From Octopus vulgaris (lineage: Eukaryota), in the NCBI GenBank assembly GCA_951406725.2, contig OX597843.1, positions 6,386,001-6,450,000 of the forward strand: a DNA stretch of 64,000 nt. The letters run 5' to 3'. Shown here piece after piece: positions 3,062 through 57,416 of this stretch. A program made the position numbers and the translations under genes. How positions within the stretch are numbered: position 1 is the first letter of the stretch; each line of letters begins with the position of its first letter. The notes under the pieces are model-generated. The model worked only from the letters and a program-made list of their open reading frames with translations. It was not told the origin of the DNA and did not search any database.

Positions 3062-4944
3062 TACCTCTGGATATCCTTGTGGCTTACTTTGAGATATATA
3101 TATATATATATATATATACTCTTTTACTTGTTTCAGTCATGTGACTGTGGCCATGCTGGAGCATGGCATTTAATCAAGCAAATCGACCCCAGGACTTATT
3201 CTATTGGTCTCTTCTGCCGAACCGCTAAGTTACGGAGACGTAAACACACCAGCATCGGTTGTCAAGCGATGGTGGGGGGGACAAACACATATATATATAT
3301 ACACATACATATATATGACAGGTTTCTTTCAGTTTCTGTCTACCAAATCTACTCATTATCATAATTTAATGTCCATTTTCTATGCTGACATGAATGGCTT
3401 GATAGGGGGTGGTCAGCTGGAGAGCTTCCCAGGCTCCATGTCTGTTTTGGCATGGTTTCTACAACTGGGTGCCCTTCCTAACGCCAACCACTTCAGAGAG
3501 TGAACTGGTTGCTTTTTACGTGGCTTGATCACTTGCAAGGTCAGTTCTATCATGGCTTCAACAGCTTGATGCCCTTCCTAATGCCAACCACTCTACAGAG
3601 TGGGTCAGGTGCTTTTTATGTGGCACCAGCACTTGGAAGGTCTGTTCTGCTATGGTTTCTACAGTCGGATGCCCTTCCTAATGCCAACCACTTTACATAG
3701 TGGACTGGGTGCTTTTTACATGGTCTGGCACCCACGAGCCTGCAAGATTAAGAACTACATTTTTCCATGCCAGCATGGGTTAATAATCCATCCACCCACG
3801 TACCCATCCATCCACGTGAAAGGAGACATTGGGGCCAGCCACAGTCCTCTGGTTCATCAGTTCCTGTCCAACCCATACTCCTCCCATTTTTTGCTTTCTC
3901 TGGTTTCCTTACCCAATCCTTCTTCCCCATAACTCCCTCCCACTCTCTCGCCCAGATTTGGTTGACTTTTCGTATCACAAACTGAGACTCCCCTTCTAAT
4001 TTCCCTGATTCAGCCCCGTTTTTCCCAGCCAAAGAGGAGAAGTATACATCACTGCCAAACACAGTCCACCTAGCTGTAAATAGGTACGCCGTGGAGGTAC
4101 AGAGGCCCACAGGTGTGCTCAGGCCACTTGGCTGTAAATGGACACCATGCTACTCTTCTACTCGCTGCATTTTTCATTTCAATTATCCCAAGATGCACCA
4201 TTCTATCAACCTAAACAACTTCTTCTAGTATATGGTGACCTCTGACCTTGAGGTCACTATAGTAAGATGACCTCTGACCTCCAGACCATTTTCATATGTC
4301 CTAGGCGTGACTTTAAACTGCATCCGATAGTGGGGATCTGATTCAAGAATTCCAGGGTTTTGAGTAGGGTGGACCCACCCAATAGCCAGTATTGTTCCCA
4401 GGCCTACTCAGGTCCAGGGTAGGAGCACTTGTCAGGGTCCAAAGTCCACTCTATTTTTTGGGGGGTGGGGTTGATGTAGTGGTGATGTTGGGTGAGGTAA
4501 GGGGAAAGTGTTGCAGAGGCAGGATAGGTGGGTGGGGTGGTCAGGTGGATGGGGGTAGGTGAGGTGCCGGGATAGATGGGGGATGGGTGGTGGTTTCGTG
4601 CAGGTGGTGGGGAGCGCTTGGTAGACAAGGGTAGATGGAGGCATCGGGGAGGGGGAGATGGTGGTAGTGTCAGATGGTCAGGGGGGATGGGGGTGTTTGG
4701 TAGACAGGGGTGGGGGAAGATGTCGGATAGACAAGGGAACAGCTGGAAGAGAAGCGCTAAGGTAGAAGGCATGGTAGGGAGGTGGGGTTAGTTGTCTTTG
4801 ATGATCATGATGGTGATGATGATGAATCAAAATGCTAAGTCAGGGGTGGGTGGCATGGGCAGAAAGCAGAAACAACAACAGCTACTACTACTACTACAAT
4901 AGTAACAAGCTTCTGTGGCTCGTTAAAAGCGACAGAGTTTCTCG

Positions 4945-5495
4945 TTAACATATTATGCAGTGATCGACTTTTTCCGCAATTGACGGACTTTCTGCTTTGC
5001 CAGTGGCTGGTGGTACCGGTGCTGGACTGGGGGCCGGCGTAGCTGCTGTGGTTGTTGTTGGTGTCGATGGGGGTGGAGTCGGTGCGGGGACGCCGCCAGG
5101 GGACGGAGCAGCGTTGGGAGTTAAAGACGATGGAGCGTCACCGATTTCCACCGCGTCCATAACAATGCTGTCCTCCTCCATCTGCTGCTCGGGGTCGCCC
5201 TCGGCGTTGTCTATGGAGAGCAAAGCATCCTCGCCCTCCGTCGTGCAGTATTTCAGCTCAGACATTTCCGTGGCCATTTCTGCAAGCTCGATTTTTTCCT
5301 CGACACAAGCGCCCTCTCCCCGTCGCTGGGATTCCGCCACATCTCCATCACCGCCATGGGCCCTCTCCCCTTTTTCGTCTCCCTCTGATGGTACCCCGGC
5401 ATCATCACCATTATTCTTATTCGGGTCTGCGTAACCATCTTCCTCGGCATTCATCATCGTACCATGACAGCATTCTCCGATTTCGGTTCCAATCT
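4945..5495 (-). CDS. Probable alternative last exon of CLIP1: 183-aa acidic then Pro/Thr-rich tail ending DHCIIC* (CaaX-like)
   Basis: Strong U-rich acceptor (tgtattttttgtcAG) in phase 1, matching the exon L donor; non-repetitive GC-rich ORF. Assignment to CLIP1 is inference. Confidence 0.65.
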
Positions 5496-5769
5496 CTGAC
5501 AAAAAATACAAAAAAGAAACAAAAAAAACAAAAACAACAGAATTACACAGGTACCACATGAGAGATCGTCAATCAATTTGGCTCAAATGCCCCACACCCA
5601 CCTTCCATGTAAAACCAGCCATGCCCACCCCCAAAATTATTCACTTCTATTTTTCTCCCATCAGCCAGATATTGGTTTCAAATTTCGACGCAAGGCCAGC
5701 AACTTTGTGAGAGGGCAGAAGTTGATTACATCGACCCCAGTGTTACAACTGGTACTCATTTTGCTCTTT

Positions 5770-5976
5770 ACTCTTCTATTTGTTTCAGTCATTTGACTGT
5801 GGCCATGCTGGGGCACCACCTTTAGTTGAGCACATTGATCCCCAGGACTTATTCTTTGTAAGCCCAGTACTTATTCTATCGGTCTCTTCTGCCGATCTGC
5901 TAAGTGACGGGGACGTAAACATACCAGCATCAGTTGTCAAGTGATGCTAGAGGAACAAACACAGACACACAAACAT

Positions 5977-6011
<35 letters not shown>

Positions 6012-6170
6012 CGACGGGCTTCTTTCAGTTTCCGTCTACCAAATCCACTCACAAGGCTTTGGTCGGCCTGAGGCTATAGCAGAAGACACTTGCCCAAGGT
6101 GCCACGCAGTGGGACTGAACCCGGAACCATGTGGTTGGTAAGCAAGCTACTTACCACACAGCCACTCCTG
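5770..6170 (-). mobile_element. SINE family A, full-length
   Basis: Reverse-complement match to 17207-17615. Confidence 0.88.
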
Positions 6171-6585
6171 TGTCATATATATATATATATATATATATGA
6201 CATCATCATTTAGCATCTGTTTTCCATGCTGGCATGGGTTGACAGAAGTTGGCCAGCCGGCAAGATGCCCAAACTCCAATTGTCTGTTTTTGGCTCGGTT
6301 TCCATGGCTAGGTGCCCTTTCTAACACCAACCACTTTACAGAGAGTGTATTGGGTGCTTTTCACATGCCACTGGCATCAGTGCGTTTGTGCAGTATCAGC
6401 ACAAATGCATTTTATTTGGCAGCCGCCCCTGGAGAGGACACGCCTGAATGCACGGACGACAGCGATTTCATTTAGCTCGATACATCTCCTAAAGTACAGC
6501 AAATCGCCACAACTCTCGGCCCCAATGTACAAAAGAGAAAAATTCATCTTCAGACAATCCATAGACCCCGGGACAAGTTGATATC

Positions 6586-6823
6586 TATTTCTTTATTACC
6601 CACAAGGGCCTAAACACAGAGGGGACAAACAAGGACAGACATAGGTATTAAGTCGATTACATCGACCCCAGTGCGTAACTGGTACGTACTTTAATTTATC
6701 GACCCCCGAAAGGATGAAAGACAAAGTTGACCTCGGCGGAATTTGAACTCAGAACGTAACGGCAGACGAAATACCGCAAAGCATTTCGCCCGGCGTGCTA
6801 ACGACTCTGCCAGCTTGCCGCCT
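6586..6823 (-). mobile_element. SINE family B
   Basis: Reverse-complement match to 34332-34557. Confidence 0.85.
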
Positions 6824-6969
6824 TTTATCTATGGAATATCTGTGTGCTGATCGGGCCCTGTTTCTCAACCAGTATTGAACCTGTGACCCTGGGGTTTAAA
6901 AGAACCTCAACAACTAAAAAGAAAATAAGACACGGATCAACTTGGTTTCATCATCAAAATAAATTCAAC

Positions 6970-6975
6970 TTTATT
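6970..6975 (-). terminator. Candidate AATAAA poly(A) signal for the DETF isoform
   Basis: AATAAA followed by U/GU-rich sequence, just upstream of the distal exon acceptor; another AATAAA at 11829-11834. Confidence 0.35.
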
Positions 6976-7019
6976 TTTAAAAAAAAGCAAAGGAAACGGT
7001 TTCAACCAATTTGTTATAG

Positions 7020-7570
7020 CGCAAGGGTGGTGTGGTGTATGCTGCAGTGTATGTTGTAGTATGCTATGGTGTATGTTGTAGTATGCTGCAGTGTAGGTCG
7101 TAATATGCTGTGGCATAGGTTGTAATATGCTGTGGTGTAGGTTGTAATATGTTGTAGTGTACGTCGTAGCAAGCTGTAGTGTACGTCATAGTATGCTGTG
7201 GTGTATGTCATAGTATGTGATGTAGGCCATAGTATGATGTGGTGTAGGTTGTAGTATGCTATAGTGTGCTGTCCAGTGGTGGTAGTGGTGTTGGTGTGGT
7301 ACAGCTGCATGGTGCAGTGTGGTGCCTGTTGTAGTATATTGCAGTGTTGACTAATGTGGTGTGTGTTGTAGTAGGCTGTAGTATGTTGTAGTGTATGCTG
7401 TGGTAGATGCTGTAGTATTTGGTGGCATGTCCTGTTGTATGCTGTGGTAGGTGCTGTAGTATGTTGTGGTGTTGTCTGATGTGGTATGTGTTACAGTATG
7501 TTGTGGTGGTGGAGTCATCTAGTGTGGTGTATGTTGTGGCATGTGTTGTAGTATCCAATATGGTTGTGCT
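7020..7570. repeat. Degenerate ~22-bp GT-rich minisatellite
   Basis: gtagtatgctgtggtgtaggtt-like units. Confidence 0.75.
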
Positions 7571-8519
7571 GTTTTCTGTACAGAATTAAAACTATTATTA
7601 TTATTATTATTCTTACAATTTTGTTATTTACAAAAGTAGCAGAGAAGGAAAAAGATAAGAAAAAACAGGGAGGGAGAGAGAGAGAGAGAGATACAGAGGA
7701 AAGAGAGAGGGGGAACTAAGAGAGAGAGGAGAGGGGACAGAGAGAGAGAGAGGGGATAGTGATATATATATATAGAGAGAGAGAGATGGAGAGAAAGATA
7801 AATAGAGGGAGAGAGAGAGAGTAAGGAAAGAAAGGCCTTAAAAACAGATCATCAAATCCAGACCAATTTTGAAAAATGGCAGGGGGGAGGGGGCAAGGGG
7901 GGTTGATGAAGGGGTGTGGTAGGAGGGGAGCGGGAAGGGATGGGCGTCACAAAAACAGCCCCATGGCCCTTGACTGTAAGGAAACATATGAAAGGGCTTC
8001 TGTGTGTGTGTGTGGTGCAGTGGTGGAGAGTGGAGGTGGTGAATGCGATTGGAGGGGGGAGTGGTGAAGAGGGTTAGTAGACACAGAGGTGGTGGCAGCG
8101 GTGAGAGGAGAGGAGAGAGAGTGACAGAAGTGGTGGTGATGGTTGAGGCGGTGGTGGTGGCGACGGCGGTAGTAGTGGAGGTAGTAGCAGTGGTGATGGT
8201 GGTAGGGGGGGGGGTCATTGGAAATTTTAGGGAGACGAGAACGGTTCAAATGGAATGTTGTTATTTCGTTGGGATCCCAACGGCTGGACACGGGGCCAAA
8301 AGGGGGGAAAGGCTGGCAGCCCCCCTCCCCCATGCTGGTCTGGCGCTCCACCCTGCCACCACGGTTCAAATCTCAGCTGGGTCACACATAGGGGCCACAC
8401 TGCTCCCTTATTTCTCTCTGGCAGGACTCTAATGTAGTGTCACCCATGTGGTGTTGTCCGATGCGCTGTGGTGGGGTTGAGTAAAGGCTACAATTTGACG
8501 AGGTGGGCAAACCCTAGGT

Positions 8520-9160
8520 AAAAACTGCTAGAGCAGTGTTGGAAAAGTGCAGTGTAAGAGATATAACAAAGAGAGAGGTGCTGTACTGCAGCAGTGGTAA
8601 ACTAGTGTAACGGCAGTGTCAGAATAGTGCAGTAACAGCGGTAAGGAAGTGCTGTGCCAGCAGTACAGCAGTGCTTTAACAGTGGCATTGCAGTGTTAGA
8701 GGAGCGCTATGGCAGTGGAAAAACAGTATGAGTGTTTTAGCAGTGGCATTGCAGTGCTAGAGGAGCACTACACCAGTGGAAAAGCAGAAGGAGCAGTGTT
8801 TTAGCAGTGGCAGTGTTAGAGGAGTGCTATGCCAGTGGAAAAGCAGTGGAATTGCAGTGTTAGAAGAGTGCTACATCAGTGGCACAGCAGTGTTAGAGGT
8901 GTATTTTACGAGTGGCATAGCAGTGCTAGGTGTATGCTATGCTGGCGACATGGCAGTGCTTTAACAGTGTTAGGGGAGTGCAATGGCAGTGTTTTATGAG
9001 TATCGTAGCAGTGCTTTAATGGTGTTATTGCAGTGTTAGAAAAGTGCTATGCCAGTGGTACGGCAGTGTTAATGGAGTGTGATCCTAACAGAGCTACAGC
9101 AGTGTCTGAGGCTTGTCGTGCAAGTGGCGGGTGACATACACCAGAGTGTTGTATCAGTGG
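8520..9160. repeat. Degenerate gcagtg-based tandem repeat
   Basis: Recurrent gcagtgttagaggagtgct. Confidence 0.7.
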
Positions 9161-9459
9161 TGTTGGCAGACCAACTGGACAGGCCAGGTTAAACCCGGTT
9201 GGGGGGTGGGGATGAGGGGGGGGGCAGCGGAGGTGATGAAGGGAGAGAAAGACCAGGACCATTAGGGCTGGGGGTCAGGTCAACGACCACCAAAGAAGGG
9301 AAACAGGAGGGGACAGCTTACTATCAACGAGAAGAATTACTGAGGTGTTATTAAGAGGAGATATATGATAATCCATCGAAGGGATTAACTGGTGTTATTT
9401 TGGGATTTGTCTGTCTATATTCTCTTCTATGCATCTGTCTACTTATATGGTTTCCAGGG

Positions 9460-10550
9460 GCTGGATTAGTAGCAAAGCAGAGATAATGATTGTCATTAGT
9501 TGAAAAATAAGCTAATTACAACTTAATCCTAGTCATGAGAACTGGTAGGAGATTAGGGATAATCCCTGACAGAGCTAGCAGCAGATTAAGTTAATGCACA
9601 GGTAGAAACTGGATAGGGTTACATTAAGCCATGGTATGGAGTTAATCGGGAGTAGGGACCAAGCTAATTCCTGGCATGGAGCTGGCTAGGATTAGAGTTA
9701 ATCCAGGATATAGAGCGAGCAGGCGACCAAGTTGATCCACAACATGGGTTAAGGTAATCCATGACATGGAGCTAGCAAGGGATTATGTTGATCTGCAATA
9801 TGAAGCTGATTATGGATCAAGTTAATCCATTATAGGACAGGAGGATTATGTTAATCCTGATATGGAGCTAGCAGGGATTTTAAGTTAAACCACGAGATTG
9901 AGTTGATATGAAACTGATTGTGGATCAAGTTAATCCATGACATGGGACTGGCAGGAGGATTAAGTTAATCCACAATAATGGAATTGGCAAGAGGATAAAG
10001 TTAATCCACATTAATGGAGTTGGCAGGCAATTAAGTTAATCCACAATATGGAAACAAACAGGGATTAATTCATGACATGGAATTTGCAAGGGATTAAGTT
10101 AATCCCTGATATGGAATTAAGTTAATGTATGACATGGAGCTGGCTGGAGATTACATTAATCCCTGATATGGAGCAAGCAGGCGATTAAGTTAAACCACAG
10201 TGTGGAGTTAAAAGGGGATTAATTTGATCCACAGCATGAAACTGGTTGGGGTTATGCTAATCCAAGACATTGAGCTAATAGGATTAAGTTAATCCACACT
10301 ATAGAGTTAGCAATGGATGAAAATGTTGTATGATATGAAGCTGGGGTCAAATTAATTGATGACATGGAAATGGTAGGGGATTAAGTTAATCCACAATAAT
10401 GGGATTAGCAGGGAATTGATTTCATGCCCAATGATGGCATTAGCAAGGGATGAAGTTAATCCACAATAATGGATTTAGGAGGGAATTAAGTCAATCCCTG
10501 ATATGGAATTAAAAGAGGATTATGATAATCCATGATGTGGAGTTGGCTGG
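9460..10550. repeat. Degenerate ~40-bp minisatellite with palindromic core ggattaagttaatcc
   Basis: Many consecutive units. Confidence 0.8.
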
Positions 10551-11129
10551 AAGGCAGAAGGAAGCAAATGTCCTGTAGCCCCTAAATATGAGGACAGGTT
10601 ACATAACTTTGGCCCTGTCCACTGGATAGAAGGGACCAAGCTATGTAGGGGGTCATATTATGGAGGAAGACGGAACAGCGGCTAAGTTGTAAAGAAGAGG
10701 GTCTTAGGGGTTATTCCAGTTACCCCCCAAAGAAAGAATGGTGACTTACCTTAACCCTTACCAACTGGACAGACTAGGTCAAACCAGGAGGGTGGTGGTG
10801 GTGATGGTGGTGGCGGCGAGGAGGAAGATCAGGGCCTTTAGGGGCCGGTAGTCAAACTACTACCAAAGTATGGAGATAAGGGACAACTTACTTTTATCTG
10901 TGCATTCTTGAAGATAAAAATTTAGGGAAAAAACCCTAATACATATATATACATATATATAATATTAGGGAGAGAGAGAGAGAGAGTAGAGAAAGAGCTT
11001 GACATAAACAGGGGCCGAAGGAGAGTCAAGGAGAAATGACAGAAGAGAGAGAGAGAGAGAGAGAGAGAGCAAAAGAGAGTAAGTCTCTCTTTTTCTCCCC
11101 CTATATAGGCAGAGAGGGGTGAACAGAGA

Positions 11130-11561
11130 GAGGGAGAGAGAGAAACAAATAGTGAGATAGAGAGATAGGGAGATAGAAAGAAATAGATAGATGGACATAA
11201 ATGAAGAGACAGACACACAGATAGATAGACCGAGAGATAGATAGGTAGGTAGATAGATGGATAGATAGAGATAGGTAGGTAGATAGATGGATGGATGGAT
11301 AGATAGAGAGAGAAGGAGAGATAGATAGATAGAGAGAGAGAGAAGGAGAGATAGATAGATAGAGAGAGAGAGAAGGAGAGATAGATAGATAGAGAGAGAG
11401 AGAAGGAGATATATAGATAGAGAGAGAGAGAAGGAGAGATAGATAGAGAGAGAGAGAGAGAGAAGGAGAGATAGATAGATAGATATATATAGAGAGAAGG
11501 AGAGATATACAGATAGATAGAGAAGGAGAGATAGATAGATAGATAGAGAGAGAGAGGAGAG

Positions 11562-11592
<31 letters not shown>

Positions 11593-11690
11593 AGGAGAGA
11601 GAGAGAAGGAGAGATAGATAGATAGACAGACAGATAGATAGAGACACAGACAGATAAATAAACAGAGAGATAGAGAGATGAAGACAGATC
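11130..11690. repeat. AG/AGAT compound microsatellite with ~30-bp higher-order unit
   Basis: agaaggagagatagatagatagagagagag repeated. Confidence 0.9.
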
Positions 11691-11964
11691 AATAATAGAC
11701 TTCAAGAGTAAAAATGTCTCAAATAGGTTTTTTTTTTTGTTAAACCAGAAAAAAAAGAAGAAAAAATCCGTCTGATTCAGGCTCAGGAAACTGTTTGTGT
11801 TTTGTTTTTGTTTGTTTTTTCTCTTCTTTTTATTAAAATCATTTCACAAAGCAGCAAATAACAGTGGCGGCAGCAACAACTGCGGCAGTAAAGGTAGCAG
11901 CAGCAGCGGCGGCAGCAGCCGAAAGTCAATACATATATATACATATATATATACATATATATAT

Positions 11965-12012
<48 letters not shown>

Positions 12013-12612
12013 ATATATTTAGAGAAAGGGAGAAAGCGGCCATCGTTAACTTGTAGGTTCTCTATGACGATGTTATGGTGGTCATGGGTGGTGATGGTCG
12101 TGGTAGGTGACAGTGGTGGCGATAATGGTGGTGGTGGTGGTGGTAGTGTCGGCAAGTAACGATGGCCATGGGCTAAGAAAGGGGGGGTGGGGACAAGGAG
12201 ATCATCGTCGTCGTCATCATCATCATCATTGTCGTCATCGTCAACATCATTGTTATCGTCGTCCGGGGCAGTGAAGTCAACAAAACGCCGACCGACCGTC
12301 CGCGACCACGCGTCGTCGGTCATCGGCGTTGGCGGGTGCAAGTTAGTCATGGTGATGGTGGTGGTGCTGCTGCTATGGGGCTGGTGGTGGTGGTGCACAG
12401 ATGTGGTGTGCAACTGGGTTTTTTTCAAAAAAAAAAAAAATTTTTTTTTTTCTCGCAACAAAAAGTAAATAAGGGGTGAGGTGTCCTGACCATCACCCCT
12501 GCAGATGGCCCTCAAAGCACAGCAACGATATTAGCACAGGAATATATGGCAACAATGTGCAGGCACTGATGTATATATACATATATACACATATATATAT
12601 ATATAATATGCA

Positions 12613-12650
<38 letters not shown>

Positions 12651-14185
12651 CACACATACAGTGTGAAAGGTCGGCAGGTAGAGAGGGTGGGTGTGTGTCC
12701 AACCTGTATAACCACACCCACCTGAGGGCATGGCAAAGGGCGCAGCAACGAGTCTAGGGATTGGTTCATTGGTTGCAGTAGTAGTAGTAGTAGGAGGCTG
12801 GAGGAGGAGCATTGATATTGGAGCTGGAGGCGATATTATTATCATATCATTATGTCTGTGAATTGCAGAGAGGGAGGGAGGGAGGGAGGCGGCAGAAGAG
12901 AGAGAGAGAGAGGGGGGGAGTGGCTGTTGTAGTAAACAATGCACAAACTGGGAGGAGGAGGAGCAAGAATTCAAAATATATATAAAACGCCTCCGCATGA
13001 CGAAAAGTGAAGTGGGAGGAATTAAGTGTGTTCTTTGGAGGAGGAGGAGGTGGCGACTGTGTTGGAGGAGGAGGAATGAACGAACGAAAAAAAATAATTT
13101 AACAAGATCAGAGCTGATACAGCCAACAGAGTTAATTAAGTTTTGTGTTTTTATATCGGAGTTAACGAAGCTGTGATGCAGCAACATTTTAAAGACTGTT
13201 GGATGGGAGGGGGTGGGGACTTGGGGGAGGAGGGAGATGGAAAAGGAGGAGGAGCCAATGTGGCATAGGATTGGGAGGGGCAGAGAGACGGGGGGCGGGA
13301 TGAGAAATGAAAGGGAAGAAATGGGCGGGGACAAGGAATGATGAGGAGAATGACAACTGGGGGGTGGGGCAGGGTAGGAAGAGGGAGATAAAAGGAGGAG
13401 CTAAAATGGCAACAAGGGTGGGAAGGGCATGGAGGAGGTGTTGGACGAGAACTCTAAGGGAAGAAAGAGGTGTTAAGGAAGAGAGGGCCCTGCGTGTGGG
13501 GGAGGGTGGAAAAGGAATTGGGATAAGAAGGAGGGAAGGAGGGAGAGACAGGACAGAGAGGGTGTGAGAATCAAAGGGGAGAAAGGAAGCCATTTAAAGA
13601 AGGGGGCGTGGCATGGGATGTCAGGAATGAAGAGAAAGCATTATGATAGGGGGAGAGGAAGGAGTAGAAGAATAAAAAAAATTTAAAAAGTGGGAGGGGA
13701 AAACGTGATGGAGGGGGTGGTGACGATTAAAGGAAAGAAGTGGGGGGGAAGACATAGGAGCGAACTGGTGAAGGGGCGGAGTTGATAAGGAGAGGAGGAT
13801 GAGGAGAAGCTAAAGAAGCAACAGAACACGGGGCAGGGATCAAACAGGAAAAAGGGGGCAGAACAGGGGAGAGGGGAAGATATATATATATCTTCCCCCC
13901 CCCCCCCCTACATAAAGTCTGGGAGGGAAGTGTCATCTCGTTCTCGGCTATTTTACTGGGATTTCGAAACCCTTGATGGGCGGGGTGGGGAGACATTCGG
14001 CAATATGCAAAGGACAGAGAGAGAGAGGGGGGGAGGAGGGGGAGATGGAGGATAGGAGGTGCAGGAGTGGAACAAGGCAGGGGTGGGGTTGTGTGTGTGG
14101 GGGGGAGGAAACAGGGACGGAATGGAGGATGGGGTGTGGGTGGGGGGTCAGGGAGGAATGAAGGGAAATAATTTTTTTTGACGGC

Positions 14186-14232
14186 TCAAAACGTTTCGTC
14201 CACATCACAGTCGGAGGTCTGGTGTCCAAAAA
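14186..14232 (-). CDS. CLIP1: CLIP1 canonical last coding exon: (V)[14 protein letters not shown]
   Basis: tttgctttgcAG acceptor, phase 1; completes CCHC knuckle 2 and the EEY/F-type DETF terminus. Confidence 0.95.
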
Positions 14233-23000: not shown

Positions 23001-26000
23001 TATATGCTTCCTATATATATATATATATTTTTATATACCTATATATTTATATATTACTTTATACTATATTTTTACGTTTTACCTTCTAGGTGTTGTAATG
23101 GTTTAAAAAAAAAAAATATTTTTCTTAATCGCTAAAGTATTAACTTTTAACCGTGATGAACTGTATTCACATCTATTCACACATTTTTTTCTCACACTTT
23201 CTTATATGCTTGTACAGATGAATTATATTCCATCTTCCGTGATGTCATAAATGTATATTCTATGATTAAATGTTCGAGATATGAAATGTTATGCGGATGA
23301 CCTTGCAGTTGTTTGTTCTATAACCTTAGTTTGATATGTCTCATTCAATTGAGCACTTCTATAGCAGTCCTATTAAACATTTTGTTCCTGATAAGAAACA
23401 ATCACTTTATTATTGATATATAGCTACACATACACATATATATGTTTGTCTCACTGTATAAAACGCATCCAGTCCACACTGCAAAGTGACTGGCAGTAGA
23501 AATGGTGTCCAGCTGTAAAAAATCTGCCTCAAATTCTACCTAAACCGATGCAAAGCAAGGAAAAACAGTCATTAAAACAAGCTGAGCAAGAAGGAAGTTG
23601 AGGCCAACGTTGGTTGTGTCAATAACATCAACAGAAATATGAAATTTTTTTTGAGTAAACCACACCACCATATCTTGTCCATCTTGACCTCAAGGAGCAG
23701 TTTTAAAGGTTCAGACCTTGTACACTGTAGCTATTATATTAAGGGATGTAGAACTTGCAATCATATCAGCTTGCCAGAGATAGCAGCTAAATCTCATTCA
23801 GATCACATCTGTTGTCTTAAAAAGAAAAGGATGGTGCTGTGTAACAATAGGATAATGTTGTCTTAGATACACTGTGCCTTAATCTAACACAGGGTCTACT
23901 TTATCAGTTGACTTTAGGCCAAACAACAAGGGGAGGAAGACATTAGATAATGTACACCAAGATAGTCTATGCCTCATTGAAATACGGGGTTGTCACTACT
24001 GGAACGTCTTTGATCATAGCTCTGCTGGTTCAGAACTGCCTCGGGCTAAACATCAAGGAAGGACACATTACATAATGTAGTCCTAGATACACTATGCCTG
24101 AATAAAAAGACGGGATGGTCACAGCTGGAACATTTTTGATCATTGGTCTGCTGCATTAGGATTGACCTTGGGCTAAACAACAATAAGGGAGAACACGTTA
24201 GATAATGTAGTCCTAGATACACTATGCCTGAATAAAAGACAGGATGGTCACAGCTGGAACATCTTTGATCATAGGTCTTTCTGGATCAGGACTGACCTGT
24301 GATTAAACAACAACAACACACACAAACAAACCAGTAGAACGTTCCAGAAGGATTCTAAATGAATTTCTTAAAAAGCAGACACGGTTTCCATAAGGACCGT
24401 CATGTAGAAGAGAGAGTAAGAGCTGAGGGAAAAGGTGCCGGCGAACCGGCGCCACAGGGTGTGGTCGGGGACGACAAGTAGGAACTTGGCCATTTTCAGT
24501 GGCCCGTCGAAGAGAAACGGCTTTGGAATCAAAGAGCTGAACAGATGGAACCAGGGTAGTGTTGTCAGAGTGGTGGAGGTGGTGGTGTTGGAAGAAAAGT
24601 GGTAGTGTTCGTGGTGGTGGTGGCGGTGGTGGTGTTGGCGTGGCGAGAACGACCTACCTTCACAGATTTCGCAGTAGGCTCTCTCCTGTTTGGGAGTGCC
24701 ATGGTACTGGGTGCACGGTGGACTGTCAGACATGGTCTGCTGCGGACAGTCCTCGGTGTCGTGTTTGTCAAATTCTTCACAGATATCACAGAAAAGTCGA
24801 AGTGTGACAAGCGGATCTTTCCTGGAAAAACAACAACAACAACAACAATTATTATCATTTCTTTCATTGGCCTCAAGGGCCTACATGCAAACAACATGAA
24901 ATGACAAAACAGGACGATACAAAGGGTTTTAAACCGTGTGGCACATAAAAGGCACCATTCGAATGTGATTGTTACCAGCGCCGCCTTACTGGCACTCGAG
25001 CCCTGTGCTAGTAGAGTGTTAAGAGCACCATCCGAGTGTAATCGTTGCCAGAGCAGCTAACTGGCCTCTGTGCCGGTGGCACGTAAAAGGCACCAGTCAA
25101 GCATGGTCGTTACCAGCATCGCCTTACTGGCACCTGTGCCGGTGGAATGTGTAAAAAGATTCGAGCAAGGTCGTTGACAGTACCGCCTGACTGGCCCCCG
25201 TGCTGGTGGCACGTAAAAAGCACCCACTACACTCTCGGAGTGGTTGGCGTTAGGAAGGGCATCCAGCTGTAGAAACTCTGCCAGATCAAGATTGGAGCCT
25301 GGTGCAGCCATCTGGTTTGCCAGCCCTCAGTCAAATCGTCCTTCAGCTGGTCAGATCCTGTCAAATCCTCCAACCCATGCCAGCATGGAAAAACAGACGT
25401 TAAATGATGATGGTATACAAATGTAAAGCCGAAGTGGTTACCTTTTGTCATTGTGGGCCTCGTCATCTTTCACGTCACCATTCACAAGGGCATCCAAACG
25501 AGACTTGAGGTTCTCGTTCTGCATGTGAAGATAGACAATCTCAGACTTCAGCAATTCAATCTGGAAAACAAGACGAGATGTTGTGATGCTCATGCCTTTA
25601 CGCCACAATAATAGCAGTTGTTATTCTTTAGACTTGGGGCATCCCTAATAGACACCCTTATGAGCATAAGAGTTTCCACGTGTGGCCATCCTGTTTTTTG
25701 AACCACATTAAGTAATGTTCTATCATTTTTTCTATATACAGAGAATTCTACACCACCATCCTAACAACTATCTGTCCCATTTTTGTTCACATACATCTAC
25801 AACACTATCCTCACAACACCCCACAACACTAAAACGCTATCCTCACAACACCCCAAACACTAAAACACTATCCTCACAACACTAAAACGCTATCCTCACA
25901 ACATCCCACCACACCACCCCACAACACTAAAACACTATCCTCACAACATCCTACCACACCACCCCACAACACTAAAAAACGCTATCCTCACAACATCCCA

Positions 26001-27203
26001 CCACACCACCCCACAACACTAAAACGCTATCCTCACAACGTCCCACAACACTAAAACGCTATCCTCACAACATCCCACAACACTAAAACGCTATCCTCAC
26101 AACATCCCACCACACCACCCCACAACACTAAAACGCTATCCTCACAACATTAAAACGCTATCCTCACAACATCCCACCACACCACCCCACAACATCCCAC
26201 CACCCCACAACATCCCACCACCCCACAACATCCCACCACCCCACAACATCCCACCACCCCACCACACAACACTAAAACGCTATCCTCACAACATCCCACA
26301 ACACCATCCTAACAACACATTTACATTTAGTATCACAGTATTGACCAGTCACCAGATGCTGTTATACACCACTGGTCACAATGCACTTCCAAGTTTGTCT
26401 TGATTGTGTCATTCTTTTCTATCTTGACTCAAACTGCTTAACTAAATCGTCTTCTCATTGGTGTTGAGGCCTTATATTTTCTTATTTCTGTGTCCTATAT
26501 AAGGTCACAGATTGTGTCGTATAGCCAGCTGGAGACAATGTCTCCTGGGGCTAAATTACAGCAACATTCGTCTTAAACAAGGACTGTCATGTTATGTTGG
26601 CAAACAATCTTTACTACAAACTACTGTTGCTGAATATCTCATCTGACATTTAAAAATAGTTATTTTCTAAGCTTTACACTACACTCTACTATGTTCTGAA
26701 TAGAATATCCCTCTGCAACACTGTAAATAAATTCCCTTCTGGGAATGACCGAGTTTAAAAGTCTGCTGGATCTCACTCTTAAGAGAATCTTACATTGCTT
26801 ATAAAATCTATTTCTGGATGGACTCATTTTAAACTCTGTTGGACTTTTGGATTTTACTCATAGGATACTGGAATATTACACATATATACCATTCTGCCTA
26901 TAAAACGGATTTCCAACTTCAATACCCATACACATCTTGCATCTATTTTCTTTCCTCCACCTCACTCTCTATTTTGTATCACATCTAAACTCTAACTACA
27001 ACTTTACTTTTCCTCTCACACCGGCCCCGATGAAGGGATATAATTAATAAATATCTTAGAAACAGCTGTAAAACCTTCTATCTATAAATGCTCTAATATC
27101 TACACAGCCTTGGTTTTTTATGTTATTACACAAAAAATTCTTATAAATATATTTATGTATATTTGCAAATGGATGCATGGCATTCAATCAAATAATAATA
27201 TAA

Positions 27204-27258
<55 letters not shown>

Positions 27259-27622
27259 ATATGTAGAAAAATACAAACTGGGACAAGAACGTAAAACATT
27301 TAGAAGACGATACAAAAAACACGGACGGGACATTCGAAGCCTTCAATCTTCAGTCAAGAACCGGATCATCCTAGCAATTTCGGCTGATTAATTTATATAT
27401 ATATATATACACACACATACATATATGAGTATAGGATGTCACCAACAGGAAACAACATAAAATACGAAAACGAATGTGTTTGATACGCAAGCAACTAGAG
27501 ACAAATGGAAGACAGGACAAGTAACATAAAGAACGACCCTTCATCAGTCGTCGGCTGTTTTGTCTACTCCTCATTTCGAGCATTCAACGACAATGCTCGA
27601 AATGAGAAGTAGATAGATTCTT

Positions 27623-27653
<31 letters not shown>

Positions 27654-30600
27654 GCATGTCAGTAGCACAGAGAAGTACTTTTCACTGCTGTGCCCAGTCC
27701 ATGTGGCTGTAACTAGGGACCACCTGCAACAACGTAATCATAAAACTCACCTCCATTACACTTTCTTCATTTTCTTTCTTCAGTTGTGAAACAGCACTGT
27801 CTGTTGATAGAGAACAAAAGCAGAGGGGTCAGTTCGGTCGCATACCCTTCCCCATCTCTATTTTCAGTGGGGTTGAGGGGGAACTTGAGGGAGATTTGGC
27901 TACTATTTTTCACAAGTTCAGAGACAACACAATTCTATATTTCTGTGATGAGGAATTTATTCTGCGAGGGATTGCTGAAAAGTTGCTGGTTTTTAAGGAT
28001 ATCACGAAAGGCCTGGTTGGAGGCACAATCTTCCAAGTTCTTTTATAGGGTTTAGAAAAACTGAAGGACCGCTGCAATAAGTGTGTGAATCTACGCGACT
28101 CTACTGCATTAACCAACATCTTGATCTACTACACTATGCCTGTCACGGGTCACAACAGAGAGAATATTTGGTTTTGTTTTTCTTAATGTTTGTTGGTTAT
28201 GAATTACTGACAAGGTTGTAGGACATTGCAATCAGCAAATTAGCCATAGAATAATCCTTTCTACTACAAACACAAAACCTGAAGTTTGGGGGAGGGGGCT
28301 AGTTGATCCCATCAACCCCCCAGGGTTTGACTGGTACTATTTTATCAACCTGGAAAGGACTGTTGTCCCATCTAGGGGGGGACAACACACTTACATTACA
28401 GAATCCAGGGAATTAGCCTTATGAGCCTAGAGCTTGGTAAGGCCCTTGAGGCATTGGCTTTAGTGGTCAAGATATTCAACTCAAGATCCTAAGATTGGGG
28501 TTTCAATTCCTGGACTGAGCAACTGATTGTGTTCTTGAGCAAAACATTTCACTTCACGTTGCTCCAGTCCAAATGAAAAAACCAGGGACAGACCAGGGTC
28601 CCATCCAGGGAGGATAATATAACCCGATAAACTGGCCCTTATCAGCTTGTGGCACAGCAAGGACCTTTGATACCCACAGCCTACCAGATACCCTCGCTCT
28701 AATATGTACCCTCTCCTATCACATACACACCCTTACTATTAGGTACCCAAAGGTAAGAGGGGGGAGCTGTTTAAAGCTGTACCATTCTAAAGACAGAGAC
28801 TTACCATCCTCAGAGGTATCAGCATCACCATTGGCTAACGAGTGGCCAGCTGGGGCATTTTTCTGAGCTAATTGCTCCTCGAGGGCCTTGACCTTCTCCA
28901 GAAGTTCCTTGTTTTCTTTCGATAGAGATTCTGTTAAAGAACTGGAGTTTTCTTTTAACCGGCTGTTTTCTTTCTGAAGTTGTTTCATCTGCAAAGAACC
29001 AAAAAAAACCATAAGAAAATTATAAACCAAAAAAACAAATAAACAGGAGCAGACGGGTGATCCCTTATGAAGATCTTAACGTTTCCAGGGGACCCAGGCA
29101 TGGCTGTGTGGTAAGAAGCTTGCTTCCCAGTGACACGGTTCTGGGTTCAGTTCCACAGCATGGCACCTTGGGCAAGGGTCTTCTACTATAGCCTCAGGCT
29201 AACCGAAGCCTTGTGAGTGGACTTGGTAGATGGAAACCGAAAGAAGCCCATCATATAGCAAGTGTCTTCTACTAAACCCTTGCGAGTGGACTTGGTAGAT
29301 GGAAACTGAAAGAAGCCCATCATATATATCGTCATCATTGCTTGATGTCCGCTTTCCCTGCTGGCATGAGCTGGACGGTTTGACATGGAACTGGCCAGCA
29401 AAGAGCTGTCCAGACTCCAACCGTCTGTTGGGGCAGGGTTTCTGTGACTGGATGCCCTTCCTTTTAAGATCTTTGTAATGTGTGTGTGTGTGTGTGGGGG
29501 ATCTCCCACCATCACTTGAAAACCAGTGTTGGTGTGTTTACATCCCTCTAACTTAGTGGTTCAGCATAAGTGACCAATAGAATAAGTACCAGGTTTTAAA
29601 ACCAAAGGAGTACTGGGGTCAATTTATTTGACCAATGTCCTTGAAGGTGGTGCCCCAGCATGGCCATAGTCAAATGACTAAAACAAATACTCTTTTGTTC
29701 TTTTACTTGTTTCAGTTATTTGACTGTGGCCATACTAGAGCACCGCCTTTAGTCAAGCAAATCGACCCCAGGACTTATTCTTTGGAAGCCTAGTACTTAT
29801 TCTACACACACACATACGATGGGTTTCTTTCAGTTTCCATCTACCAAATCCACTCATAAGGCTTTGGTCAGTCCAGAGCTACAGTAGAGACACTTGCCTA
29901 AGGTGCTGCACAGTGGGACTGAACCAGAAACCATTCGGTTACAAAACAGACTTCTCAACTACTCAGTCATCCATCAAAAAGCCCCATCATCATCATCATT
30001 GTTCGACTGTGGTCGAGACAATGGAATTTACCATGCTACGCCAGACTTCACGGTCCATCATGGCATTACGGAGGTCCTGTTGCTGGATGCCTGTATCCCT
30101 GGAGATTACATCAGGGTAGGAGAGTGTGCGCCCTCTGGTATTGCGAGTAGATGGCTTCCAGAGGAGAAGAGTAGAAATTACCTCTTTTTCAGCTCTACAA
30201 CAATGTCCAGCAAACTGGACTCTCCTACCTTTCACAAGAGATGACACAGGTGGTAGTTTCCCATATATTTGCATTTTGGTTGGATGAGGCTTCCACGAGA
30301 GATTTTGAGCTCTCGTAAGGAGGCGAGTATAGGTTCCATCCAATCACCTCTCAAGCCCCACCCAAACCATGCCAGCAGAGAAAAGCAGACACACACACAA
30401 AAAAAAAAAAACAGAAAGAAAGAAGGAAAACGGCTCCGCTGCTCTCAAAGAATCAAATGATTGCAGACCTACCTGGTTGGACTGGCTGGTCAGCTTGGAA
30501 TCTCTCTCTTGGAGAGCTCCTGATCTCAATTCCACCTGGTCAACAAGGGCTTTCTTTTCTGATTCGATTTCTTTTAACTGAGCACTGTATCTGGTGAAAT

Positions 30601-30879
30601 AAGGGAGACGCCTTAAGGATTTGCTTTTGCTCTCCTTTGGGAGGATGTGTGTGTGTGTGTGGGGGGGGTATGTGGGAATTCATGAAGTGGGGCATAGGGG
30701 TCACAGGATCTTCAGACAGCAATGGATAATATTAACTGCATATATATATATATGCACACAGACACACACAAATACATATATGTATACACATAAACACATA
30801 TACAAGCACGTATACACACGCACTCTAACATATGTATACACACACATGTACTTATATATTTATACCCATCCATCTATAC

Positions 30880-30926
<47 letters not shown>

Positions 30927-33900
30927 GGAGTAAACACATAAATGTGAAACAAGGTGGAAAAAAGAGTACTCAAATACCAGTGGTAGAGTAATATGCTTTA
31001 TTTAAGCAGCAGAAAATTCAACAAAACCTGTTACTCTGAGTTTCCCGTTGCCGTTCATCAGACAGTTTTTTCTCGCAAAAACTCTCCGATGAATGGCAAC
31101 GGGAAACTCAGAGTAACAGGTTTTGTTGAATTTTCTGCTGCTTTAAAAAAGCATATATATATATATACCCACCTAAATATATATAGATATATAATGACGA
31201 TGACATACATATACACATGTACACACATGCACAAACACACGTATGCATATATCCACACACACATAATATACATACACATACAAATATATAGCATATTGTC
31301 AACAGGTACACACTCAGTGTATTGCGGGTCGACATGATGGGCACACACTGGATGATGGACAGATCCACATTCTTTGAAAACATACATGTGAGTGTGTGTG
31401 TGTATATATATACACACACCCACACAGAGTTGTAGGCAGATAAATATACAAATACAAACATTAATGTGGGTATATATATATATATATATATATACATATA
31501 CACACACATTTCCATAGAGAATATATGCATGATAAATTATGAAGGAACATCTCCATAGAGATACTGAAAGTTAAAATGAACTTCCACACAGAGAAATGTA
31601 AAAATAAATCCACAAAGTGGAGGTTGGATGTAGCAAAATTTCCACACGGAAGACAGACGATACAAAATTAACACAGAAACATTTCCACAGGTCTGGTCAA
31701 TGACAATATATGAAAACAAAAATTTTACAAAATCTACACACTGTGGAAATACTTTGTTGTGTGTACCACCACCTTTATGGACCGACTTTCCACAGAGGTG
31801 GCGAACGCAACAATATTTACACACATAAAGCATTTCTATAGTGGGTTGGATGCAACAAAATTTCTACACACAAAACAATGCATTTTTACAGAGGTGATGA
31901 ATGATAAAAAGTTCTACACAGATTTTGGATGCAACTAAATGTACACACAGCAAAAAAAAAAAAAAAAAAATTCCACAGCAGTGTTGGATGATAGAAGTTT
32001 ACACTCAGAAAAAGTATTTCCACAGAGGAATTGGATGCAACAAAATTTGTACAAAAAGCATTTCCACAGAGGTAAAGGATGCAACAACATTTACACAAAA
32101 AGAAGGCACTTCCACAGAGGTGTTGACTGATAACATTTACAGACAGACAAAGCATTTCCACAGAAGTGGTAGGTGATAAGATTAACATAGACAGAAAGTA
32201 TTTCCACAGAGGTAGGGATGCAACAAAATTTACACACACGTAGAAAAAATATTTCCACAAAAACAGTGAAACACACACAAAGAAAGCGTTTCCGTTGAAG
32301 TGATGGATGCAACAAAGGCGACGGACAAAGACAGATTTTCCACAGTGGTAAAAATGGATGCTACCAGGTTTTTACCCACTGAGAACAATTGTCCACAGAA
32401 AGTGGTGGGTGCCAATGAGTTTGCACAATGCAAACTATATCGAAACCCAGTTCTTAAGAAAATACAGAAATGGCAAAAAAATGATGCGGAAGAATTTACA
32501 AGTTTCCACAGACAAATACCATCCGCTACAAATTTTTATATCAGAGATAGCCATTTAGCTCTGAGGTTTTCCAGAGATGGAAGGGGACTGGAAAGATGTG
32601 GTTGGGGTGTTCATGCCTTGTCAAGAAGCATCATTGTTTGATATGCTATTTGATAATCCTAAATTTTAAGAGGATAATCCTATATTTTAAATTGACAATT
32701 CTATATATTAAGCTGATAATTTGATAATTCAAACTGATAACCAACGAATGTTTCAGAATTAAAAACCATGAAAAAACCAGGATGTAATTACATGGGGTGC
32801 ACCCTGGTGACCAGTTATCGTAAGGGAGATAACAATTTCTGAATAAAAGATGCTGATATTCTATGCATTGTAGCAACAAGACTTGACTGGCCTGATGCTT
32901 TCGTGTTGTCGTGGCTGGATGCTTTCCACTGATGAATTCCAGTAAAATGAAATCACGGGATACAGCAATTCCATGCGATTGGGAAGCAAACCTTTTACCA
33001 TACCTGCACACCTGTGCTTGCATTTTATTATTTTTTGGTCACTCATTACAAAGATAGAGGTGCGTGGCTTAATGGTTAGGGGTGTTGGACACATGACTGT
33101 ACGATTGTGGTTTCAATTCCTATACTGGGCATTGCATTGTGTTCTTGAGCAAAACACTTCGTTTCATGTTGTTCCAGTTCACTCAGTTGGCAAAAATGAG
33201 TAACCCTGCGACAGACTGGCGTCCCATCCAGGGGGGGGGGTAGTATACACGGCATGGAAATTAGGAAACCAGCCCTTATGTGTTTACATGACTTGGGAAG
33301 GAACTCAACTGTTACATTGTTACATTACAAAGATCCAGAGGCAATCATGTGTGGTGCCATTTCATTCTTATTAGAACTCTTCCGCATAACGTAATGTGAG
33401 GCAAAGGAAATTAGACCAAATGGAACACTTTTATTAAAATACAAAAAAAAAAATAAATAAATAAAATTGAAAAATAAAGTATAAAAGAAATGAAGAAATA
33501 ACAACAAAAACAACAATATTAAAAAGAAATGGAGAAAACAAACCCAGGCAACAATATGATGATGCTGATGTTGTTGTTGTTAAACCAAGCTACTTAACCT
33601 TTAGCACACATAGGTGCATCATGTTGCCGTATGAGTTTTCTCCCCTGTAGCTGCAAGCACATTGTGTTACACTGAGAGGGGAGAAAACTGGTATGGTGAC
33701 ATTATGCGTCTACAGCATGCTGAAGGTTAACAACAACAACAACAACAACAATAATAGATTACGATGACCATAACAGCAGTAGAAACAACATCGTCAAGAC
33801 CCATGCTGACTGATACTAACGACGATGACCACAACACCAACAGAACTTTCAGAGAATTTCCTTACCATTTTTTTGATGTAGATTGTGATGAGGATGGTGG

Positions 33901-36406
33901 TGGTGGTGGTGGTGGTGGTCACAGGATTTGAAAATGGAGGAAAGAATGTGATGAGAGAAGGCGGTGGATGGGACATAATGAAAGAGGGAGAACAAGGGGC
34001 AAAAATACGATTGTTAATAATGTCATGGAGACGGGATGTCACAGATGAGAGAAGGTCATATATCGTTGCTATTATGCAAAAGTGTTGTAAGTCCAAAATA
34101 TTGCTTTTTTCAGAAAAGGCAAAAATAGTTTCACCGTTCCATAGCAAAACCTTTCTACTACGCTTTGACGATTTTTGATATCTTGGCATCTGAAGCAGAT
34201 GGAGATACGACAGTTTGACTAAAAGAACAGGCTGTTGCAAGCAAAAATAAATATTGAAAAAAATGCATTTGGCCAAATTTGGACACACGGCAGATTAACA
34301 TAATAGCAACGATATATATATATATATATCTGGCGAGCTGGCAGAAACGTTAGCACGCCGGGTGAAATGCTTAGCAGTATTTCGTCTGCCGCTACGTTCT
34401 GAGTTCAAATTCCGCCGAGGTCGACTTTGCCTTTCATCCTTTCGGGGTCGATAAATTAAGTACCAGTTATGCACTGGGGTCGATATAGTCGACTTAATCC
34501 GTTTGTCTGTCCTGTTTGTCCTCTCTGTGTTAGGTCCCTTGTGGGTAGTAAAGAAATATATATATATATATATATATCTGGCTGCTATTTTCAGCATGGC
34601 AGTATCTCGTAGATACCCTAAGTTATAATTCTAATAATAATTATTACCTTTTAAGGATTTTATTTCCATGCTGGCCACTTAATGAGATCGTTATTTAATT
34701 TAAATTAACGATCTTATCCTTATTTATATGAATTTAACATCTCCGCAGTAAATACAATCATCATCATCATCATCATCATCATCTTTTAGCGTCCGTTCTC
34801 CATGCTAGCATGGGTTGGACGGAATTCAACTGAAGCCTTCAGGCTTCCCAGACCCCAGTTGAACCGTCCAACCCATGCTAGCATGGAGAACGGACGCTAA
34901 AAGATGATGATGATGATGATGATGATTGTATTTACTGCGGAGATGTTTTAACCGTATTGCACATGGAATTAAGAAGCGGGCATTTTAAACTGGTCATGAT
35001 GCATACGTGCATATATATGTATGTATGTATACATTCATATATGTAAGTATTTGTATGTATTTATGTTTCTCTCTGCGTATAGTCCACTGATGAGGCAAAG
35101 CATTTCTAAATGCAAAGTCAGAAATCCAGGATCGGGATTTATGCAGTAATTTTTTACTAGTTTTATTTTGTCTTTTTGTCTTCTCTACTTGTGCTATATG
35201 AACACTTTCCTTATTGTTGGTGGTGTTTAGCCCCAGGTCAGTCCTGATCCATTACACCTATGATCACTTTGATCATGTTCCAGCTGTGAGCATCCCGTCT
35301 TTTATTCAGACAGTGTACCTCGGACTACATTATTTAATGTGTTCCCTTTGTTGTTGTTTAGCCCCAGGTCTGTCCTGATCCAATGGACCCATGATCAAAG
35401 ATGTTCCAGCTGTGACCATCCCATCTATTATCCAGACACAGAGTATCTAGGACTACATTATCTAATGTGTCCTTTTGGTTTTAGAGTCAGATCTGGCTGC
35501 TATTTCCAGCGTAGTGGTATCTCTTAGATACCCTAAATTATAATTTTAATAATAATTATTACCTTTGAAGGTTTTTTATTTCCATGCTGGCCACTTGATA
35601 AGATCGATAATTAAATTAGCAATCTTATCCTTAATTATATAAATTTAAATTTATTTCGTGGGCTGGATATGGCTGGTTTAAATGTTAATAGTTTAAGTGA
35701 AATCCTCAAGCTCCCTCTCCCCAGCAGGAGCAGACCCCTGCCCCAAAGGGATAAAAGAGAAAAGGGTCAACCTACTGTTTGTGGATGTCCTGTAGTTTCT
35801 TTTCGAATTTTTCGTCTGCAAGCTGTAAAACAGAAACAAAAGGGGAGATAAACATTGGGAACTTAGTACGGTATTATCCATGCAGTTTCAAAATAAGGTG
35901 AATAAAATCAAAATAAGCAATAAGGATATCCAGAAGTAATACAGTACGATCGTTTCATGCAACTCCATTTAATTGAACAATGCAAATATTGCATCAATTT
36001 AAATGCAGAGCAATCCTCAGCTGCACAAAGACATAGAATTTAATTAAATTAGAACAGATGGACACATTTGTGTGTGTGTGTGAGAGTGTGTATGTGTGTC
36101 AGAATGTGTGTATGAGAGTGTGTGTGTGTGTGTGAGAGAGTGCATGTGTGTGTGTGAGAGGGTATATGTACATGAGTGTGCATGAGAGAGAGAGAAAGTG
36201 TGTAGGGGAGAGAAAGTGCATATATGTGCACACGCGAAAGAGAGAGAGAGAGAGGCAGAGAGTGTGTGCATGAGAGAGAGAGAGAGTGTGTGCATGTGTT
36301 TCAGAGCAAGTGTGTTCACACAAGAGTGTGTGTGTTTATAGGTGTATGGCAGAGTGTGTGTGTGAGTGTGTTTGTGAGTGTGTGCGTATGGCAGAATGTG
36401 TGTGAG

Positions 36407-36441
<35 letters not shown>

Positions 36442-54400: not shown

Positions 54401-55180
54401 TACTCTTACGTTTCCCCCCCCTACCGCCGCACTCGACTTCCATCTAACACACACACACACACACATTACACACCCACACTGAAGTACACACGCGCAGACA
54501 CATACGTGCGCAGATACACACACACACACGCTCGCGCGCGCAGACACATGCGTGCGCGGCGCAGACAAGCACTCACGTGCGCACGCACACAGACATGACA
54601 CAAACACATTGACACACACATACATACATGCAGACACACACACAAAGAGGCAGACAGTCTCTCTCTCTCTCTCTCTCTCTAACACACACCCGTCAATAGA
54701 TTCTCTCGGCTCTTCTCCCCTGCCAACCTCCTCCCTGACAATGAGCAGACCAATTGTTCCACCAACTGAGAACACCCACTCATTACACTACAAGTGGCTG
54801 AGTATTCCACAGGCAAACACATATATATATGTATGTATATACTCTTACTCTTTTACTTGTTTCAGTCAATTGACTGTGGCCATGCTGCAGCACCGACTTT
54901 AGTCGAGAAAATCGACCCCCAGGACTTATTCTTTGTAAGCCCAGTACTTATTCTATCGGTCTCTTTTGCCGAACCGCAAATTCACGGGGACGTAAACACA
55001 CCAGCATCGGTTGTCAAGCGATGCTAGGGGGACATTATAATAATTTTTGTATAAGTTTACCGATAAGGGTTCTGTTAACATACCAAACTACATGATGAGA
55101 TTATTAATTATAAACTGATTAATTAATTTTGCCCTTTATTATAATTGATAATATACATACATATAAATATAAACACACAA

Positions 55181-55214
<34 letters not shown>

Positions 55215-57383: not shown

Positions 57384-57416
<33 letters not shown>

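Follow-up and report, generated by a model that had tools for sequence, protein, structure and literature searches.

A distal alternative last exon of octopus CLIP1 probably exchanges the second zinc knuckle and ETF end for a predicted disordered, likely farnesylated CaaX tail

The 64,000 nucleotides of Octopus vulgaris DNA analysed here (the window) carry the 3′ half of one CLIP-170/CLIP1 gene on the minus strand. In this gene, a distal alternative last exon would probably exchange knuckle 2 and the ETF end for a predicted disordered, likely farnesylated CaaX tail, tethering a tip-binding protein to membranes. The CaaX-ended isoform is real, conserved and apparently undescribed. No description of a CaaX-ended CLIP-170 was found in the literature searched, which mostly excluded subscription papers and supplements, and mollusc prenylome or isoform tables could mention one. 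The first-pass annotation knew of no description of the arrangement; this held for the literature searched, but the isoform sequence is already in RefSeq as unremarked models, named 'isoform X1-X4' without comment.

One knuckle exon and two terminal exons

The RefSeq protein P0004 of O. sinensis matched the window in 12 exons with 92–100% identity (tblastn). At least 10 exons of the upstream coiled-coil part of the same CLIP1 gene are spread over 25441..58832 (minus strand; 92–100% identity), and the window exons of this region correspond to residues 648–1163 of P0004. The Pfam coiled-coil matches were all below cutoff, and the character of the long central coiled coil was read from composition. 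A CAP-Gly exon with 98% identity to P0008 lies on the same strand about 58 kb past the window end (G000:C30:6507777-6508388, minus strand), and P0003, the O. sinensis CaaX isoform, contains two stretches of PF01302, corresponding to two N-terminal CAP-Gly domains. The gene is thus the same as CLIP-170/CLIP1 (restin; fly CLIP-190): it has two CAP-Gly domains, the coiled coil and knuckle 1, and its canonical last exon is intact.

Exon L (24821..24658, minus strand) encodes zinc knuckle 1, a linker and, of knuckle 2, the C-x2-C half, and ends at a phase-1 GT donor. Its 3′ end reads ...RAYCEICE plus one G (donor TGAAG/GTAGGTC), it matches PDB chain 3e2u_E of CLIP1, and it is present in one copy only; the genome has a single knuckle locus. 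Knuckle 1 (CCHC) scored above the PF16641 cutoff at residues 1169–1186 of P0003. The phase of exon L, which both isoforms share, is accepted by two terminal exons, one proximal and canonical, the other distal and CaaX-encoding.

The proximal canonical last exon (14232..14186, minus strand; 15 protein letters) encodes the latter half of zinc knuckle 2 together with the ETF end. Its sequence is intact, with an acceptor of its own and a CTAAC that resembles a branch site. It sits between exon L and the distal exon, which lies 8.7 kb farther downstream. Contigs covered positions 6960–8000, and depth was 0 in the bin 6855–6959 in all four runs, just past a minus-strand AATAAA. We infer from this stop near the AATAAA at 6975–6970 that the canonical isoform has a 3′ UTR of about 7.2 kb (6955..14185, minus strand), which would link the covered stretch to the canonical exon. 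Another AATAAA, at 11834, may mark a proximal poly(A) site. Very high-copy interspersed repeats occur at 5700–6330 and 6540–6850 (summed contig depth >100,000), and similar copies sit in many introns of the window.

The coding part of the distal exon (5495..4945, minus strand) comprises 183 codons and a stop, is acidic and then Pro/Thr-rich, and reads in frame behind exon L as E-IGTEIGECCH...KVDHCIIC-stop, the CaaX box CIIC being translated from 4959..4948. Upstream is a strong splice acceptor with a long U-rich tract and CAG (5545..5496, minus strand), recognized in the sequence and by contig ends; downstream begins the 3′ UTR of the CaaX isoform (4944..4860, minus strand), which contigs continue to about 4617 by length. 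The exon is present in a single copy in the genome and is 93.5% identical to the tail of O. sinensis P0004. Among 28 acceptor-like in-frame matches of at least 30 codons between exon L and the window start, only 5495–4945 has a Cxxx end. Read-through of the exon L donor in this genome gives a 96-aa tail that ends in VSAF without a CaaX box, and was thus rejected as the source of the CaaX end. The CaaX isoform does not show the knuckle 2 pattern (C-x2-C-x4-H-x4-C plus ETF/ETY), with Thr at the His position; PF16641 (CLIP1_ZNF) gave one stretch in all five CaaX isoforms and two stretches in both canonical ones. These data bear out three readings of the first-pass annotation: the in-frame, phase-1 join of exon L (YCEICE plus G) to a strong acceptor, on which the sequence and the RefSeq models X1–X4 of O. 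sinensis agree; the acidic, then Pro/Thr-rich tail ending in CIIC and a stop; and an alternative last exon of CLIP1 that removes knuckle 2 and DETF, as seen in the exon structure and PF16641 counts.

Use of the distal exon and purifying selection

The O. sinensis RefSeq isoforms X1–X4 (e.g. XP_036370729.1) all carry YCEICE/EIGTEIGECC...CIIC, exactly the join predicted for the window. Their RefSeq cluster has six members, namely four CaaX-ended proteins and two N-terminal fragments, with no canonical end. The cluster thus shows CaaX ends only for octopus, and we infer use of the canonical exon from its intact sequence and the coverage up to the AATAAA at 6975. The O. sinensis models of this cluster lack the DETF end though the exon is intact in the window genome, and the annotation may miss the textbook isoform.

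Sequence words of the distal exon were present in 20 of the 24 listed sequencing runs, none of which is on record as RNA. The contigs of four runs (X1, X2, X5 and X13), whose RNA status was guessed, were compared over 4860–8000, and those of all four covered the distal exon. Record 27 of run X5 is a minus-strand contig of 4243 nt, only the last 109 nt of which match, with 0 mismatches, up to 5497, the point expected from a join to the terminal AG of exon L (...GAAG). The 4136 nt upstream agree, by length only, with a coding sequence of 3652 nt and a further 484 nt. Record 27 is consistent with an exon L–5495 junction, not proof of it. In runs X2 and X5 depth was 0 at 5548, and coverage was thus lost at the acceptor.

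The remaining two runs bear on a different explanation, in which the CaaX exon would be mainly an independent transcript with an intronic promoter, encoding a small acidic prenylated protein, and the join to CLIP1 would be minor or a modelling artefact. The sole contig of run X13 at the acceptor continues unspliced to 5650 (depth 23), in run X1 an unspliced contig is present as a minor component (6.6 of 37.9), and record 4 of that run extends to 5782; in addition, the exon has early Met codons (MMN), and the Logan proteins of Pomacea and Littorina, which may be DNA contigs, start just upstream of the tail without a knuckle. However, the acceptor is strong and in the right phase, coverage stops there in runs X2 and X5, record 27 continues 4.1 kb into other sequence, and database models in nine species place the tail directly after YCxxCE. 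We regard an independent transcript as improbable, and consider it highly likely that the distal exon is used as a last exon of CLIP1.

Between organism B (run X13) and the window, the distal exon shows 10 synonymous changes on 128 sites and 9 non-synonymous ones on 418 sites, giving a pN/pS of 0.28 (Fisher p = 0.005); the ratio was calculated from 19 listed coding substitutions, 27 of the 29 differences of the organism B contig being visible. The exonic indels of organism B, of −3 and +6, both keep the frame, and a +1 lies in the intron. The distal CaaX exon is under purifying selection.

Conservation and origin of the tail

When the tail by itself was the query, O. sinensis was the sole organism matched (one match among 8000 candidates scored), nothing was found among 1.84 billion representative sequences, no Pfam family matched the octopus tail, and residues 1160–1399 of P0003 yielded nothing usable in the ESM Atlas. 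Conservation surfaced only with the upstream knuckle exon as query. Models X1–X7 of Pomacea canaliculata diverge from the canonical protein at the position where octopus does (YCEICE/YFIDP...) and have a 407-aa acidic tail that ends in ERPESCTVS. The profile built from octopus and Pomacea gave 1127 CLIP knuckle matches, of which the best 120 were classified as canonical (76), canonical with read-through (8), short tails (22), tails of at least 150 aa (12) or unparsed (2). Among these best 120 of 1127, a Cxxx end was present in 12 of 12 long tails and in 1 of 22 short tails, the latter being an artefact of a knuckle Cys, while Cys makes up 1.3% of the residues in tails. The short tails begin with G or S in 21 of 22 cases, as donor read-through would give. 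One unparsed protein, from Batillaria, ends in SCVVS.

The conserved terminal CaaX that the first-pass annotation had named as a check in other cephalopod and mollusc CLIP loci was found, among profile matches and cluster members, in 10 species of four classes (Cephalopoda, Gastropoda, Bivalvia and Polyplacophora), the class having been checked for 4 of the 10 species. The tails are acidic and 182–748 aa long, and they share an end of the form [DE]-S/H-C-x-[IV]-[SC] or close to it: KVDHCIIC in O. sinensis, RPESCTVS in Pomacea, RPESCVIS in Littorina, RPESCVVS in Batillaria, KTDSCVVS in Haliotis cracherodii, H. rufescens, H. rubra and Gigantopelta, NRDSCKIS in Mytilus californianus and PERECVIS in the chiton Liolophura. 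The X of CaaX is S in nine of the 10 species and C in the other. In seven mollusc tails the Cys at −4 is invariant and is preceded by [DE]-S in five, and all seven tails plotted for disorder fall on the disordered side of a composition-based charge–hydropathy plot; Asp and Glu make up 16–30% of the tails. Alignable tail bodies were limited to the Haliotis species and to the pair Pomacea and Littorina, and across lineages only the end is common; homology between lineages thus rests on position and the last eight residues. The end of the M. californianus tail (P0157) consists of repeats of about 28 residues (GQVSEHH.EE.K...DDNRD), and the final repeat continues into the CaaX box.

The lack of constraint on the tail body between lineages would suit a reading in which the sole purpose of the isoform is the loss of knuckle 2 and the ETF end, leaving a CLIP-115-like, dynactin-blind protein whose terminal Cys is unlipidated or irrelevant. 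Vertebrates obtain a knuckle-less CLIP from the paralogue CLIP-115/CLIP2, which lacks the C-terminal metal-binding motifs (PMC2172020), and the octopus genome has one knuckle locus. CLIP-115 is without both knuckles, whereas in molluscs the isoform retains knuckle 1 and has the CaaX box in addition. The Cys at −4 and an X of S or C are the sole features kept in every long tail, which a simple truncation would not conserve, and deletion as the only role is thus disfavoured and seems very improbable.

Both endings are annotated in Liolophura (canonical model X5) and Gigantopelta (canonical model X8). The tail begins with G-K in Liolophura (P0088) and S-E in Gigantopelta (P0089), as read-through of GTAAG and GTGAG donors would, so that their gene structure may differ; these two may reach the CaaX box through an extension of exon L or a later donor instead of splicing. 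Among the models listed, only canonical ends were present in seven mollusc species, namely H. asinina, two Biomphalaria, Physella, Lymnaea, Elysia and Solemya. All heterobranch models listed (Biomphalaria, Physella, Lymnaea and Elysia) are canonical, which could reflect loss of the CaaX exon there or a gap in annotation. Loss in H. asinina, heterobranchs and Solemya was not accepted, because annotation depends on the tissues sampled and absence was therefore not taken as loss; three other Haliotis have the tail. Among the best 120 of 1127 matches, the proteins from vertebrates, hemichordates, annelids and arthropods had no such tail; their ends are canonical, apart from a few shorter models that stop before the knuckles. 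Judging from these sequences, the CaaX tail at the CLIP1 end is probably ancestral to molluscs. Motif-only conservation of this kind escapes similarity search: the tail matches nothing beyond Octopus, yet its last residues are kept in four classes.

The start of the octopus tail bears a gap-free likeness to the canonical exon (EIGTEIGEC and VFGHQTSDC, with Thr at the His position), which the first-pass annotation had pointed out and read as suggesting an old duplicate of the last exon. The likeness itself was reproduced: 13 of the first 26 nucleotides match the canonical exon (binomial p = 0.005), and 0 of 174 other in-frame offsets reach 13 matches in a post hoc test. The octopus 9-mer also scored in the top 0.2% of the protein background, an approximate value since the canonical set of eight held one mis-framed sequence. 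However, seven non-octopus tails scored at 3–44% of the background (approximate scores with the same canonical set), the best being Mytilus at 3%, and none of the seven clearly resembles the canonical exon. With its support coming from octopus, descent of the distal exon from an old duplicate of the canonical one appears doubtful. Selection for zinc ligands may be an alternative cause of the likeness at the tail start. A [C/H]-x-H motif lies at tail positions 9–13 in octopus, chiton, Pomacea and Littorina, not in Haliotis; it reads CCH, HTH, HTH or CPH among P0009, P0060, P0088 and octopus, 9–13 residues after C-x2-C, and in octopus occupies 5474..5466 (minus strand). The caenogastropod motif FIDP.A..KH.HSK, kept in Pomacea, Littorina and Batillaria, resembles a C2H2-type finger. 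In several lineages, the tail [C/H]-x-H may thus form a different zinc site with the C-x2-C of exon L.

Predicted function of the CaaX isoform

Compared with canonical CLIP-170, the CaaX isoform is missing both the ETF end and the His-x4-Cys part of knuckle 2, and has instead an acidic CaaX tail of 180–750 aa. We propose that the cell would join exon L either to the proximal canonical exon, with its poly(A) site, or to the distal CaaX one, and that, in the second case, farnesyltransferase (FTase) would very probably modify the CaaX Cys. FTase would be the modifying enzyme because every species has S or C as X. The CaaX rule (Cys at −4, aliphatic a2 and an X fit for FTase) holds for CIIC in octopus and for CTVS, CVVS, CVIS and CKIS in its relatives, the positive residue at a1 of CKIS being tolerated by FTase. 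The FTase substrate motif consists of CaaX plus a flexible hydrophilic linker of about 11 residues (PMC1175975), and the residues before the octopus Cys, SPSIAEKVDH, are flexible and hydrophilic as judged by eye. The octopus tetrapeptide is identical to the yeast Ras1 box, which is named as farnesylated in the available text of one source (PMC6517510). Judged by these motifs, it is highly likely that the CaaX isoform is prenylated.

In CLIP-170, the terminal ETF contributes to partner binding. Knuckle 2 binds p150Glued and LIS1, as the first-pass annotation had stated and PMC2172020 agrees, and knuckle 1 binds the protein's own N-terminus (PMC2172020). Since both CAP-Gly domains and knuckle 1 are kept, the isoform would remain able to follow tips and to inhibit itself by folding back, yet the absence of knuckle 2 and the ETF end would abolish recruitment of p150Glued (dynactin) and LIS1; we hold this combination to be quite likely.

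Where the lipid would place the protein is a further matter. A single farnesyl is a weak membrane anchor, and Ras-type plasma-membrane targeting employs a second signal, either a polybasic patch or an adjacent palmitoylated Cys. No clear polybasic second signal was found before the CaaX box, where net charge ranges from −5 to +3 across tails (octopus, −1); over the last 25 or so residues most species have a neutral or acidic sequence, and a KGKK stretch occurs in the chiton only. Nor was a conserved second Cys found beside the CaaX box, the nearest upstream Cys in octopus being 96 residues away. Since the polybasic signal is mostly absent, a protein and not a membrane may be what the lipid binds, and the isoform, though real and farnesylated, would then use it as a handle for a protein partner or as a sorting signal. 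The conserved residues before the Cys ([DE]-S-C in 5/7) would suit a binding pocket, and, in the available text of PMC4384735, CENP-E, CENP-F and Spindly are farnesylated and Spindly needs its lipid for RZZ binding. However, CaaX proteins go by default to ER and Golgi membranes, as stated in the accessible part of PMC8357416, and a tail length that varies as much as 182–748 aa suits a spacer better than a docking module. CLIP-170 is, furthermore, a parallel dimer and would carry two lipids. A protein handle instead of a membrane anchor is thus possible but unlikely. Membrane tethering by the CaaX isoform seems reasonably likely on the features of its sequence, and two farnesyls on the long flexible tails of the dimer, acting as spacers, may well let the protein hold on to endomembranes or the cortex by avidity, with no need of a polybasic patch, a step that we hold with rather less assurance than prenylation.

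Several known proteins share parts of this design. CLIPR-59/CLIP3 has ankyrin repeats and is without the long coiled coil and the knuckles. It is likewise a CAP-Gly protein, and a C-terminal lipid holds it on the TGN, plasma membrane and rafts, but it is encoded by a separate gene and bears double palmitoylation instead of a CaaX box, according to the available text of PMC2797139. The mollusc isoform is likely CLIPR-59-like in outcome and OAS1 p46/p42-like in its switch, and a member of neither group. Gain of a CaaX box by splicing has parallels in ZAP-L/ZAP-S, lamin A/C and K-Ras4A/4B. In OAS1, 3′ alternative splicing likewise adds a CaaX box and endomembrane targeting to one isoform (p46, versus p42); the protein is unrelated, however, p46 is geranylgeranylated (CTIL), and the CLIP1 switch also removes a motor-adaptor site (OAS1 as described in the accessible part of PMC8357416). 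Spindly, CENP-E and CENP-F, coiled-coil proteins of microtubules or the dynein pathway, have farnesylated C-termini; the part of PMC4384735 available does not describe their CaaX as a splice option, and the lipid of Spindly binds RZZ (PMC4384735). In contrast to Spindly, farnesylation in mollusc CLIP1 would replace dynactin recruitment, not enable it.

We give about even chances to the full proposal, in which, since before the mollusc classes split, a 3′ splice choice would have toggled CLIP-170 between a loader of dynactin/LIS1 and a farnesyl-anchored tether that joins microtubule ends to membranes via a long disordered spacer. The CLIP-170 C-terminus has been treated as a fixed dynactin/LIS1 hub, and a splice-swapped prenylation signal would be an adaptor-free link from plus end to membrane. 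If the proposal is true, the protein would act as a 'cytoplasmic linker' that anchors itself and that could be employed in particular tissues, e.g. in neurons. The isoform would provide a ready-made natural construct to probe membrane-anchored tip tracking in squid, octopus and mussels, animals used in studies of axons and transport.
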